64,000 bases of DNA, taken from assembly GCF_000027125.1 (NCBI RefSeq), contig NC_017626.1, one strand, 5' to 3'. Positions within the stretch are counted from its first letter, which is position 1; each line of letters begins with the position of its first letter. The position numbers and the translations under genes were made by a program. The notes below the pieces were generated by a model that worked only from the letters and a program-made list of their open reading frames with translations, made no database searches and was not told where the DNA came from. Below, piece by piece: positions 43,559 through 48,319 of the stretch. Source of the DNA: Escherichia coli 042. GTDB lineage: Bacteria; Pseudomonadota; Gammaproteobacteria; Enterobacterales; Enterobacteriaceae.

Positions 43559-45216
43559 CCGATACTCCAGAAGAGCACCGCCAGTAATTGGGGGGTGATA
43601 ATGCGCAGGAACATCACTAACGGATAGACAGTGGCGTAAGAGAGCGCCGCCGCACCGCTCGTTGGATGAAGATTATTAGCAAACGCCAGCGCCGGAGGAT
43701 CGGTCATGGAGCCAGCCAGCATCCCGCACATGGTCAGGTAATTCATTTTGGCTAACATCCGCGCCAGAATGCCAACAGTAATCAGCGGAACGGCGGTGAT
43801 CAGCGCACCATAACCAATCCAGCTTAGCCCTTCGCCATTGACCAGGGTATTCACAAAATCCCCACCAGATTTCAGACCAACGACCGAGAGGAACAGCACG
43901 ATCCCCAGCTCCCGCAGCGCGAGGTTGGCACTTGGCGGCATAAACCAGTACAGCTTGCCGATACTGCCGATACGCCCGAGGATCAACGCCATAATCAGCG
44001 GACCGCCCGCCAGCCCCAGTTTCAATGCGGCCGGGAATCCCGGCACAAAGACGGGAATAGAACCTAACAATACGCCAAGCCCGATACCAATAAACACCGG
44101 CAACATCTGAACCTGTTGCAGTTTTTGCTGCGCATTCCCCAGCACATTGGCAACGGCATCAATTGCGGACGGACGCCCCACCAGGTTGAGAATATCGCCG
44201 AACTGCAGGCTGATATCGCCACTGGCAACCAGTTCGACCCCGGCACGGTTCAGGCGCGAGATAACAACGTCGTAGCGTTCTTTAAAGTGCAGGTCGCGAA
44301 TACGCTTACCAAGCACGTTTTCATTGGTGACCACCACACGCTCGACGCGTAAATCAGTGCCTTTCGTGGACAGCGAGGTATCGACCTCCTGACCAATCAC
44401 CAGTTGCGCATTATGTAAATCCGCTGGCTGCCCCACCAGATGCAGCAAATCGCCCAGTTGGATAATGGTATCTGGCGAAGGTACTTTTAGGGTTTCTTCT
44501 CGTTTCAGACGCGAGCAGATAATTTTGTCGCCGTTGAGAATCGGTACATCTTTAATGGCTAAATCATGCAGGTTAGGGTTCTCAACGCGAATATTGATAG
44601 TCCTGATCAGCGCGCCGCCATTGGTGCGTGAAGACTCGTGCTGCTGGGCTTCTGTCTCGACATTGACGCGGAAAATAACCCGCAACATCCACATGGTGAA
44701 CAAAATCCCGCAAATGCCGAATGGATACGCCATCGCGTAACTCATCCCCATCTGATCGACCATTTCCATTGGTGTACCCAGGTCGCGCAAGATCTGCTGC
44801 CCTGCCCCCAGTGCTGGCGTATTGGTTACCGCACCGGAGAAAATCCCCAGTACTACCGGCAGTGGAATATCAAACAGTTTATGCAGGATGGCGGTAACCA
44901 GACCACCGATGATGACGATCAGAACAGCAAACAGGTTGAGGCGTAATCCGGAGACGCGCAATGAGGCAAAGAAGCCCGGACCCACCTGAATCCCGATGGT
45001 ATAAACGAACAGGATCAGGCCAAATTCCTGAATAACATGCAGCATATCGCTACTTAATGTCATCCCCGCCTGAGAAACAAAATGGCCGACGATGATCCCA
45101 CCAAACAGCACGCCGCCAATACCTAATCCTATGCCGCGAAATTTGACGTTGCCGATAAACAAACCGACGACTGCCACCAAAGCCAGAATACTGACCGTTA
45201 ATGCTATATCACTCAT
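43555..45216 (-). CDS. yidE: Putative transport protein YidE (AAE-type transporter with TrkA-C domains)
   Basis: Matches YidE from [22 protein letters not shown]; 553 aa. Confidence 0.88.
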
Positions 45217-45367
45217 CGTCCATTTCTCTTGAGATAACATTTTAATTGCTACGGATTATGGCTGAATCGGTGAAGCAGATTTGCCTTATAGCGCACATTA
45301 TCACGGGAAAGAACGTGCCGAAATATCTTAAACAGGCGAAAATTAACGCATTGTTGAAGAAGAAAGA

Positions 45368-45396
45368 CAAAAAAAGCCCCACCAGAATGGCGGGGC
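45368..45396 (-). terminator. Rho-independent terminator downstream of ibpB
   Basis: Minus strand gccccgccattctggtggggc followed by ttttttt. Confidence 0.7.
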
Positions 45397-45411
45397 AAAG
45401 AGAATAGCTAG

Positions 45412-45840
45412 TTAGCTATTTAACGCGGGACGTTCGCTGATAGCGATACGCTGCGCTGCGATGGGTTCAGGCTCATTACGAATTAAATCAATATGCAGTA
45501 AACCGTTTACGAAGGTTGCACCAGAGACTTCCATATTTTCAGCCAGCGTAAAGCTCAGGCTAAATGGCTGATTCATAAGCCCTTGATGCAGCCATTTTTT
45601 CTCTTCTTTTGGCTGCTCCGGCGTGCCTTTTACGCTCAGGCGCGTACCTTCCAGTTGAATCTCTAAATCTTCCTGACGAAAACCTGCCAGCGCAAGGGTA
45701 ATGCGGTAGTGGTTATCGTCGCTTTTCTCAATGTTGTACGGCGGGAAGCTCTGGCTTTCACCGGCGTTTTGCAGTGCGTTGGCCAGTTTGTCAAAACCGA
45801 TCCATTGACGCATCAGTGGGGATAAATCGAAGTTACGCAT
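45412..45840 (-). CDS. ibpB: Small heat shock protein IbpB
   Basis: Matches IbpB ([24 protein letters not shown]); 142 aa. Confidence 0.93.
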
Positions 45841-45951
45841 AGTCATTTCTCCTTCTAAGAAGCGAGTAAGTACCTGCAAATCCGAAGATTCGCATATGCT
45901 CCCTGACGGCGAGCATGGAGATGTCAGGCCGCGCCAGGCGGCCTTAAGGAA

Positions 45952-46365
45952 TTAGTTGATTTCGATACGGCGCGGTTTTTTCGCTTCCGGAATCACGCGT
46001 TCGAGATCGATATACAGCAGACCATTCACCAGGTTAGCACCACGAACATGAATGTTCTCAGCTAACTGGAATTTGCGTTCAAAGTTGCGTTCAGCGATGC
46101 CCTGGTACAGATAGGTGCGCTCTTTTTGTTCGTCGGCGTGAGCACCTTTCACCACCAGCAGATTATCCTGGGCGGTAATTTCCAGTTCGCTCTCAGCAAA
46201 ACCAGCCACAGCGATAGCAATGCGGTAATGGTTTTCGTCTACCAGTTCAACGTTATACGGAGGGTAGCCGCCATTACTCTGGCTCTGGTTGTTTTCTAAG
46301 TGGTTAAACAAACGGTCAAATCCAATAGCAGAACGGTAAAGCGGGGATAAATCAAAGTTACGCAT
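45952..46365 (-). CDS. ibpA: Small heat shock protein IbpA
   Basis: Matches IbpA ([24 protein letters not shown]); AGGAG RBS; 137 aa. Confidence 0.93.
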
Positions 46366-46467
46366 AATCAATAGCTCCTGAAATCAGCGAGAATGTAAGA
46401 CCTTCCACAATGGACAGGTCAGGTAGCCAGAACACCCATCAGGCGCGTCCTCATCGGCTACGATGTA

Positions 46468-46495
46468 AAAATGGGTCTGGAAATGAACTTTTCAA
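46468..46495 (-). promoter_or_regulatory. Sigma-32 heat-shock promoter of ibpAB
   Basis: Minus strand cTTGAAAa, 14-nt spacer, CCCATtTt, about 100 nt upstream of the ibpA start. Confidence 0.8.
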
Positions 46496-46670
46496 GCCTT
46501 ATCAGCGGACTTTTTTTTGCAGTTTATGGTCTATTGCATAGACTGAGGGGGCAGCACGAAACGTTAAAGTGCGATAGCCGCCACAGTGCGACGTAATGAT
46601 GATGTTATTTTCAGCAAGGGATCGCTATAACTCATCAGGCCAACACCCACGATCAACAGATGAATTTATT

Positions 46671-47003
46671 ATGATAAGAAATGTGTTGTTAGCGTTCATG
46701 ATATGCAGCGGAATGACATTACTTGGAGGATGCTCCAGCGTGATGTCCCATACCGGGGGGAAAGAAGGAACGTATCCCGGCACCCGCGCCAGCGCCACCA
46801 TGATTGGCGACGATGAAACCAACTGGGGCACTAAGTCGCTGGCGATTCTCGATATGCCGTTTACCGCTGTGATGGACACGCTTTTACTGCCGTGGGACGT
46901 GTTCCGCAAAGACAGCTCGGTGCGCTCACGCGTTGAAAAAAGCGAAGCCAACGCGCAAGCCACCAATGCGGTTATTCCACCGGCCAGAATGCCTGATAAC
47001 TGA
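46671..47003 (+). CDS. yidQ: DUF1375 lipoprotein YidQ
   Basis: Matches YidQ from MIRNVLLAFMICSGMTLLGGCSS (lipobox); 110 aa. Confidence 0.85.
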   Translation: MIRNVLLAFMICSGMTLLGGCSSVMSHTGGKEGTYPGTRASATMIGDDETNWGTKSLAILDMPFTAVMDTLLLPWDVFRKDSSVRSRVEKSEANAQATNAVIPPARMPDN

Positions 47004-47004
47004 T

Positions 47005-48252
47005 TTAGCGATCAGTTTCGGTGATCCACAGCTGGCCGCCTTCCATCCACGCCAGCCATTGACCATCCGGCGAGAAGACCACGGCGTCCGCAGAAGGTGG
47101 ATTGGCGTGGTTTTCGGTTAAATACTCAACCTCGCCGCTTTGCGCATGGGCACAAGCAATTCGATTATCCAGCACAAAGCCCAACCATTCTCCTGATGGA
47201 TGCCAGTTAAATGCAGACTGAATATCCGTTTTGTTATGGGTTAACTGGCGCGGCTCGCCGCCCTGTGGCGAGATAAGCCACAGTTGCACAATGCCGTTAT
47301 CATTACGCATTAAAAACGCGATTTGCGTACCCTGCGGATTACAGCGCACCCAGTGGCGCGGGACGTTGACTAACCCCGGATAAGCCCGATGGTGGGTAAA
47401 GGTTAAACGTCGCTGCACGACGCCACGCGGTGGCGCGGGCAGGGTTGTTTCCGTTCCACTTAATGGCGCATCACCTGCCGCTTTCCAGCCAGCTTCATCT
47501 TGCGGTAACTCAACGATAAATAGCTCCGGCACTTTCTCGCCCTTTGGCGAAAGTGTGTCGCCAATAAACGCCAGCGCGTGATTTCCTACCCATCCTTCTT
47601 CATAAGCACGATTGATTTCATCGCTGCCAGGCTGCGGCGTGGGCGTGGTTTTACTCACCAGCACGCACCAGTGGCTACCGCTGTATTCACGCGGATGCTG
47701 CTTTTGTACGTTGACCGGGCCAAACGGTGCCGCAACACCGACGTTTCGCAAATCCAGCGCCGAATCGAGTTGATGCATTACATGGTCGTTATAGGTAAAG
47801 CTCACCCTTTCTCCGTTCGGGCTAAAGACATGCACATGGCTGCCGCCGCGCAGCGCTCCTGGGGTGTACGGCGCGGTAATATCCATTGCATCGAGATTGC
47901 TCACCTTGCCGCCTTCAACAATCACTCCGCGCCGATGATGGAAGTCGTAATGCCATGTTTCATCAGGATTTTCCGGTCCGTGGATGAAAACATATTTCTC
48001 TGACTTCGGATGAACGGTCACCACGCCGACGTACGCGCCCTGTGACGCGCGATAGATAACCTCGACCTCTCCAGTATGGATATTCACACGCTCAATGGTC
48101 TCGCCGGTAAACGACGCGCCAGAAGGACGCACGTCAAATACCAGCCACTGGCTGTCGGGCGTCCAGGTATTGGTATTGGTGAGCAGGTGATTACGGGGAG
48201 CAAAGGTTATCTGTTTCATGGCGCGGTCCTGATACAAAACGGGTCCCGCCAT
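47005..48252 (-). CDS. yidR: DUF3748 beta-propeller-like protein YidR
   Basis: Synteny and sequence; start ambiguous among ATGs at 48255, 48252 and 48219 (the last has the best RBS). Confidence 0.8.
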   Translation of the reverse strand: MAGPVLYQDRAMKQITFAPRNHLLTNTNTWTPDSQWLVFDVRPSGASFTGETIERVNIHTGEVEVIYRASQGAYVGVVTVHPKSEKYVFIHGPENPDETWHYDFHHRRGVIVEGGKVSNLDAMDITAPYTPGALRGGSHVHVFSPNGERVSFTYNDHVMHQLDSALDLRNVGVAAPFGPVNVQKQHPREYSGSHWCVLVSKTTPTPQPGSDEINRAYEEGWVGNHALAFIGDTLSPKGEKVPELFIVELPQDEAGWKAAGDAPLSGTETTLPAPPRGVVQRRLTFTHHRAYPGLVNVPRHWVRCNPQGTQIAFLMRNDNGIVQLWLISPQGGEPRQLTHNKTDIQSAFNWHPSGEWLGFVLDNRIACAHAQSGEVEYLTENHANPPSADAVVFSPDGQWLAWMEGGQLWITETDR

Positions 48253-48319
48253 CATACTTCACAAGGACTTCACTTTCAGACAATAGTCTTTCGCCATCGT
48301 GATGAATGTGAGTGAAAAG

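Follow-up and report, generated by a model that had tools for sequence, protein, structure and literature searches.

The DNA immediately upstream of ibpA in the sequence studied here is, with a probability of about 0.95, the known control region of the Escherichia coli ibpAB operon, composed of a sigma-32 promoter and a leader that carries a ROSE-like RNA thermometer. Both elements lie on the minus strand of the window, by which we mean the whole 64 kb stretch of DNA analysed. The promoter and the ROSE leader are already known and stand in Rfam and in the RefSeq annotation, and nothing in them is new; the value of the present study is one of correct annotation only, and it adds no new biology. 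An earlier note on this DNA had proposed a sigma-32 promoter about 100 nt upstream of ibpA and, without folding the leader, a ROSE-like thermometer behind it. In the present study we obtained the motifs, their conservation, a family match, a predicted structure and its covariation, and the interpretation of that note is supported with small corrections, namely the minus strand (the strand had been omitted), a spacer of 13 nt, a transcription start that is deduced, and a gradual opening of the Shine-Dalgarno (SD) sequence. The self-repression exerted by IbpA, a third layer of control, had also been left out. The confirmation shows that a sigma-32 promoter can be recognised, and a thermometer inferred, from raw sequence.

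The ibpA locus and its orthologues

The 1.4 kb around the element has a match in 5419 of 5426 complete E. coli genomes, with an identity of at least 99% in 5201 of them. RefSeq features at the equivalent coordinates are ibpA (labelled 'small heat shock chaperone IbpA'), ibpB, yidQ and a sequence feature named 'ROSE'. Because of these genome matches and features, the window can be taken as part of the E. coli chromosome, for which public annotation already includes the ROSE element. The genes and flanking elements are as follows.

46365..45952, minus strand: ibpA coding sequence, a small heat-shock protein of 137 aa with its ATG at 46365 (open reading frame list and RefSeq)
45840..45412, minus strand: ibpB, downstream of ibpA
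45396..45376, minus strand: strong intrinsic terminator after ibpB, GCCCCGCCATTCTGGTGGGGC followed by a T-run (9 pairs, 7 of them G-C)
about 45240..45412: region of the IS200C site, ibpB-yidE spacer
46671 to 47003, plus strand: yidQ, divergent from ibpA

Some side observations concern the surroundings of the operon. In some E. coli genomes an IS200C transposase gene stands beside ibpB, as seen within the match to 45300..46700; it is absent from the window. Rfam matches to Hrs1 and anti-hemB at 45369..45440, near the ibpB terminator, were weak (24-25 bits against 49-56) and were dismissed, since they arise from the terminator hairpin after ibpB. On the other side of the locus, yidQ (plus strand, ending at 47003) and yidR (minus strand, ending at 47005) are convergent, with one base separating their stop codons (46671..48255 of the window); the pair has been described as a convergent 'excludon' with overlapping transcription (PMC12288877).

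In order to obtain orthologues, one genome per species was scanned with the IbpA protein, which gave 80 Enterobacteriaceae loci with an IbpA identity of 91-100%; represented among them are Escherichia, Citrobacter, Salmonella, Klebsiella, Enterobacter, Kluyvera, Kosakonia, Cedecea, Buttiauxella and Mangrovibacter. A MAFFT alignment was made of the 150 nt that precede the ATG; it contains 81 sequences (the 80 orthologous loci and the window).

A sigma-32 promoter upstream of ibpA

The promoter region reads, on the minus strand and in the 5' to 3' direction, ggCTTGAAAagttcatttccagaCCCATTTTtacatcGTAGCC, and contains the two elements below.

46496..46490, minus strand: sigma-32 -35 element CTTGAAA (TTGAAA at 46495..46490), consensus 6/6
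46476..46468, minus strand: sigma-32 -10 element, canonical aCCCATTT at 46476..46469; the CCCATTTT of the earlier note is at 46475..46468

The promoter had been read in the earlier note as TTGAAA, a 14-nt spacer and CCCATTTT. The motif is present and the spacing is as it was read, but the canonical register, which gives the best agreement with the sigma-32 consensus, is TTGAAA, 13 nt and aCCCATTT, with 6/6 and 7/8 positions matched. In 2006 Nonaka and co-workers reportedly found a spacing of usually 13-14 nt in sigma-32 promoters. The distance from the end of the -10 to the ATG at 46365 is 103 nt, in keeping with the value of about 100 nt given before. The E. coli consensus used for the comparison is TTGAAA / CCCCATWT (Nonaka et al. 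2006, quoted in PMC6687850).

The pattern TTGAAA-N13-15-CCCATNT has a single match in the 64 kb window; dinucleotide shuffles, of which 3 of 100 contained a match, give an expectation of 0.03. Among the 81 sequences the C, T, T, G, A and A of the -35 never vary, and the other A of this element reaches at least 90% conservation; at the 80 orthologous loci the A and the T-run of the -10 are either without variation or conserved to at least 90%, and the C-rich part is variable (CCCAT, CCACAT, CCTCAT, ACCGAT). Free variation is seen in the 150-nt alignment both in the spacer and upstream of the -35. As judged from this comparison, the conservation pattern is most probably the footprint of a functional promoter and not a chance match, because the -35 and the -10 are conserved while the spacer between them varies freely.

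If the motif were nevertheless accidental, ibpA would be transcribed from a sigma-70 promoter or from one located farther upstream, and the 'leader' would be part of some other 5' region. We consider this very improbable. The deduced nature of the transcription start, a -10 that agrees with the consensus at only 7/8 positions and the conserved blocks found farther upstream (46529-46630) would speak for it; they are outweighed by the expectation of 0.03 matches per window, by the retention of CTTGAAA and the -10 in 80 species, with a constant distance to the leader hairpins and a free spacer, and by a scan of 45200..46800 on both strands in which no sigma-70-like promoter was found. Furthermore, gSELEX located a binding peak of the RpoH holoenzyme in the ibpA<>yidQ spacer (PMC5493296). 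The level of RpoH is tracked by the induction of ibpA mRNA (PMC9032294; 10.1101/2020.04.20.050740), ibpAB was found by RpoH ChIP in Salmonella (PMC11548764), and the membership of ibpA in the RpoH regulon rests on the literature (PMC5493296, PMC11548764, PMC9032294).

Transcription start and extent of the leader

The start of transcription was deduced from its distance to the -10 and from the conserved GTAGCC that opens hairpin I, and would lie at 46458-46464.

46464..46458, minus strand: putative zone of transcription start, with G 46461 taken as +1 (leader of 96 nt)

G 46461 as +1 was the choice of the earlier note and corresponds to a leader of about 46461..46366. A start placed 6-10 nt beyond the -10 gives a leader of 93-99 nt. 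If the published G71 is the bulged G at 46388, the published numbering would begin at 46458.

The leader as a ROSE element with three hairpins

The search of Rfam gave a match to ROSE_2 (RF01832) at 46431..46359 on the minus strand, with a score of 100.4 bits against a gathering score of 65 and an E value of 7.6e-23. The match is full length (model positions 1-73 of 73), and the gathering score is also reached by 11 of 20 orthologous loci in other genera. Membership in the related ROSE_3 family was rejected for the ibpA leader (20.8 bits against a cut-off of 43). The minimum free energy (MFE) fold of the UTR alone, calculated with ViennaRNA, has three hairpins at all temperatures between 20 and 50 C.

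46461..46423, minus strand: hairpin I, stable, dG -18.5 kcal/mol at 37 C
46420..46399, minus strand: hairpin II, stable, with one bulged G, dG -9.0 kcal/mol at 37 C; contained in the ROSE_2 consensus structure
46395..46369 (core 46391..46375), minus strand: hairpin III, predicted thermolabile and SD-occluding (ROSE_2 structure line and MFE fold)
46390..46386, minus strand: anti-SD motif UCGCU with the bulged G 46388; family motif U(U/C)GCU (PMC3669281)
46379..46375, minus strand: Shine-Dalgarno AGGAG of ibpA, 9 nt upstream of the ATG, paired with the CUC/CU of the anti-SD

The core of hairpin III consists of CUC-G-CUG paired with CAG-GAG, the two sides being joined by an AUUU loop and G 46388 being unpaired in both the Rfam and the ViennaRNA structures. 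The predicted dG of this core is -4.6 kcal/mol at 37 C and -3.8 kcal/mol at 42 C, so that the hairpin holding the SD is predicted to be labile relative to those upstream of it (-18.5 kcal/mol for I and -9.0 kcal/mol for II). The leader as a whole has an MFE z of -2.5 with respect to shuffles, 4 of 500 of which were equally low. The SD is conserved in 79 of the 80 orthologous loci, and the combination of anti-SD, loop and SD, written as T[TC]GCT-N3-8-[AG]GGAG, is likewise matched in 79 of them.

The element also has the traits of the ROSE family in its location, since it lies in the 5' UTR of a small heat-shock gene, immediately upstream of E. coli ibpA, and the family is one of alpha- and gamma-proteobacteria. 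ROSE-like thermometers have 2-4 hairpins and 60 to over 100 nt (PMC10474464; PMC3669281), a range that includes the three hairpins and about 96 nt found here, and the two stable hairpins and one labile hairpin agree with the stem-loops SL1-SL3 described for the ibpA leader (10.1101/2020.04.20.050740). The assignment of the leader as a ROSE-like RNA thermometer, which the earlier note had put forward with the leader unfolded, is therefore supported by the covariance-model score, by the predicted pairing of UCGCU with the SD around a bulged G and by the comparative evidence given below.

Conservation and covariation of the hairpins

The three-hairpin structure was projected onto the alignment of 81 sequences. 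With this structure, taken from the window's own fold (a choice that favours it), standard pairs form in 87.6% of the alignment cells, and sliding the 3' partners by 1-3 columns lowers this share to 32-51%. Double-sided changes occupy 187 cells against 68 in column shuffles, and none of 500 shuffles reached the observed value.

The hairpins differ in what they contribute. Of the 9 pairs in the upper stem of hairpin I, 7 carry compensatory changes, and 92% of the cells of this stem are paired; the lower stem is 70% paired (50-70% in the lowest pairs) and lies on a gappy stretch of the MAFFT alignment. In hairpin II 93.9% of the cells are paired and three pairs show compensatory changes, one position being A-U in 35 sequences and G-C in 34. 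In the core of hairpin III the six pairs show practically no variation among 80 distinct sequences, with 99.8% of the cells paired, and this hairpin therefore provides conservation only and no covariation evidence of its own. RNAalifold run without a supplied structure found hairpin III and the upper part of hairpin I only. It missed the base of hairpin I and the whole of hairpin II, and these were therefore tested with the supplied structure.

Conservation of this region might in principle come from the opposite strand, where two ORFs of 43 and 41 aa (46410..46541 and 46471..46596) overlap it and could be taken as a coding or antisense feature. We give this explanation almost no credence. Orthologues carry indels of 1, 2 and 4 or more nt inside the ORFs, in the loop of hairpin I and in the I-II linker, and these frame-breaking changes led us to reject the small plus-strand ORFs; the variation follows base-pair covariation and not codon periodicity, and ROSE_2, on the minus strand, is the one known family with a significant match. 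No evidence of a plus-strand feature within 46366..46495 was found.

Predicted behaviour with temperature

The earlier note had suggested folding the leader at 30 and 42 C, the lack of a hairpin over the SD being the outcome that would speak against a thermometer. This outcome did not arise. With the UTR alone such a hairpin is present in the MFE fold at both temperatures, and over the whole range of 20-50 C; when 30 nt of coding sequence are included it is present at 37-50 C. In that longer construct the mean predicted probability of AGGAG being unpaired is 0.08 at 25 C, 0.16 at 37 C and 0.23 at 45 C. With 12 nt of coding sequence a competing alternative fold appears and the trend is reversed, the predicted unpaired probability of the SD going from 0.56 at 20 C to 0.36 at 50 C. 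The opening of the SD is thus predicted to be gradual and not a sharp melt.

Deletion of the bulged G 46388 in silico changes hairpin III from -4.6 to -8.4 kcal/mol and lowers the predicted accessibility of the SD about 25-fold. This locking fits the published result that deletion of 'G71' of the ibpA leader abolishes thermosensing (PMC2896394). An in-silico study reported that the predicted opening rate of the ibpA ribosome-binding site is not significantly above that of ordinary mRNAs (PMC2896394). Given the dependence on context seen here and this published null result on predicted opening, folding alone supports the architecture of the leader and does not prove thermosensing. In E. coli, ibpA-bgaB fusions driven by a temperature-neutral promoter showed about 4-fold induction from 25 to 42 C (PMC3669281).

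Proposed mechanism and the role of IbpA

We propose that RNA polymerase carrying sigma-32 (RpoH) would start transcription at about 46461 from CTTGAAA-N13-aCCCATTT, and that the resulting leader of about 96 nt would fold into three hairpins, of which I and II may act as stable scaffolds. The weak, ROSE-type hairpin III, with UCGCU and AGGAG paired around the bulged G, would hinder binding of the 30S subunit at low temperature, and warming would make the SD progressively more accessible, in the manner of a 'zipper' and not of a switch. To this is added a further layer, in which IbpA oligomers bind the ibpA leader and repress translation until they are titrated by protein aggregates (10.1101/2020.04.20.050740; PMC10410725; PMC10474464). 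The sigma-32 dependence, the temperature-dependent translation and the self-repression by IbpA are taken from the literature, and the relative weight of RNA melting and of IbpA release is one that we infer.

That weight could be distributed differently. The leader may be mainly an operator for IbpA, serving an aggregation-sensing autoregulation in which RNA temperature sensing is secondary, and the three hairpins would then be conserved through recognition by IbpA oligomers and not through the melting of hairpin III. Several published results agree with such a role: weakening SL1, SL2 or SL3 relieves the repression by endogenous IbpA, overexpression of sigma-32 lifts ibpA mRNA about 10-fold without an obvious rise of the protein (both 10.1101/2020.04.20.050740), and residue R93 of IbpA is required for binding to the 5' UTR (PMC10474464). 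Our own data add that hairpins I and II are conserved with covariation though they make no contact with the SD, and that the predicted thermal opening of the SD is modest. On the other hand, the two mechanisms are not exclusive and are called layered by the same authors (10.1101/2020.04.20.050740), the 4-fold response of the reporter fusions between 25 and 42 C is one to temperature (PMC3669281), and UCGCU, the bulged G and a weak SD hairpin are all present and invariant. We therefore regard a predominantly operator function as possible but unlikely, and retain the thermometer as the preferred reading of the leader. In this combination the sigma-32 promoter and the leader would give ibpAB a layered control by heat and by aggregation.

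Other conserved blocks in the ibpA-yidQ spacer

A phylogenetic footprint of 46511..46630 over about 78 Enterobacteriaceae gave several blocks that are at least 90% conserved upstream of the sigma-32 -35. They are listed together with an adjoining marbox.

46518..46511, minus strand: A8 tract at about -50 to -57, resembling an UP element
46546..46535, minus strand: CTCAGTCTATGC, half of the palindrome GTCTAT-TGC-ATAGAC at 46529..46543
46554..46568, plus strand: marbox GCACGAAACGTTAAA, an exact copy of the MarA ChIP-seq marbox
46592..46570, minus strand: block of about 23 nt, with two AGTGCGA copies on the plus strand, 17 nt apart
46630..46621, minus strand: TTATAGCGAT, which on the plus strand is GCTATAACT

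From its sequence and place, GCTATAACT may be the -10 of yidQ. The marbox was reported from the ibpA<>yidQ spacer of enterotoxigenic E. coli, where a MarA ChIP-seq peak covers it (PMC5684230), and in Salmonella the hslT<>yidQ spacer has a RamA/SoxS site (PMC10268841). The blocks and the marbox are candidates for sites acting on either ibpA or yidQ, and we think it rather doubtful that, through them, the sigma-32 promoter is not the sole transcriptional input to ibpA. If some of these sites did act on ibpA and not on yidQ, a direct link of ibpAB to the MarA/SoxS/Rob stress regulons would follow.

The leader of ibpB

A second leader was predicted in the ibpA-ibpB intergenic region, as a separate observation.

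45951..45841 (core 45866..45849), minus strand: ibpB leader, predicted fold

The prediction contains three GC-rich hairpins followed by an SD-occluding hairpin, CUCGCUUCUUAGAAGGAG; no Rfam match at E <= 1 was found for this leader. A sigma-54 promoter has reportedly been described for ibpB. The search for sigma-54 sites (TGGCAC-N5-TTGCW, at most 3 mismatches) gave 311 matches against 333 expected, and inspection of the ibpA-ibpB spacer by eye found no canonical -24/-12 pair. An ibpB RNA thermometer has been described and is likewise repressed by IbpA (PMC10410725; 10.1101/2020.04.20.050740).

Comparison with known systems

The promoter resembles other E. coli sigma-32 promoters (dnaK, groES, clpB) in its TTGAAA -35, its C-rich, CCCCATWT-like -10 and its 13-nt spacing, and differs from them in that the -10 tetrad of ibpA has an A in place of the first C (aCCCATTT). 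In contrast to most heat-shock genes, the output of ibpA is further gated in translation by its leader (10.1101/2020.04.20.050740). Among ROSE-like RNA thermometers this leader is one of the two that have been studied best (PMC3669281).

This leader is the same element as that of Rfam ROSE_2 (RF01832), being nearly identical to the model consensus and sharing with it the two 3' hairpins, the UCGCU/AGGAG pairing and the bulged G. The model spans hairpins II and III and 11 nt of 5' flank, so that hairpin I (46461..46423) is outside it, though it belongs to the leader of three stem-loops that has been published (10.1101/2020.04.20.050740). The ibpB leader shares with that of ibpA, in its predicted SD hairpin, the motif CUCGCU and a bulged G (45863 in the ibpB leader), but the rest of its sequence and its upstream hairpins are different, and it is internal to the operon transcript instead of forming the 5' end. 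ROSE1 of Bradyrhizobium japonicum hspA, the Pseudomonas ibpA thermometers and E. coli ibpA are all located in the 5' UTRs of small heat-shock genes, and have in common U(U/C)GCU in the 3'-proximal hairpin with an imperfect pairing of the SD, and stable, temperature-insensitive 5' hairpins (PMC3669281). They differ in the number of hairpins, which is four in ROSE1, two in Pseudomonas (61-62 nt) and three in E. coli ibpA (about 96 nt).
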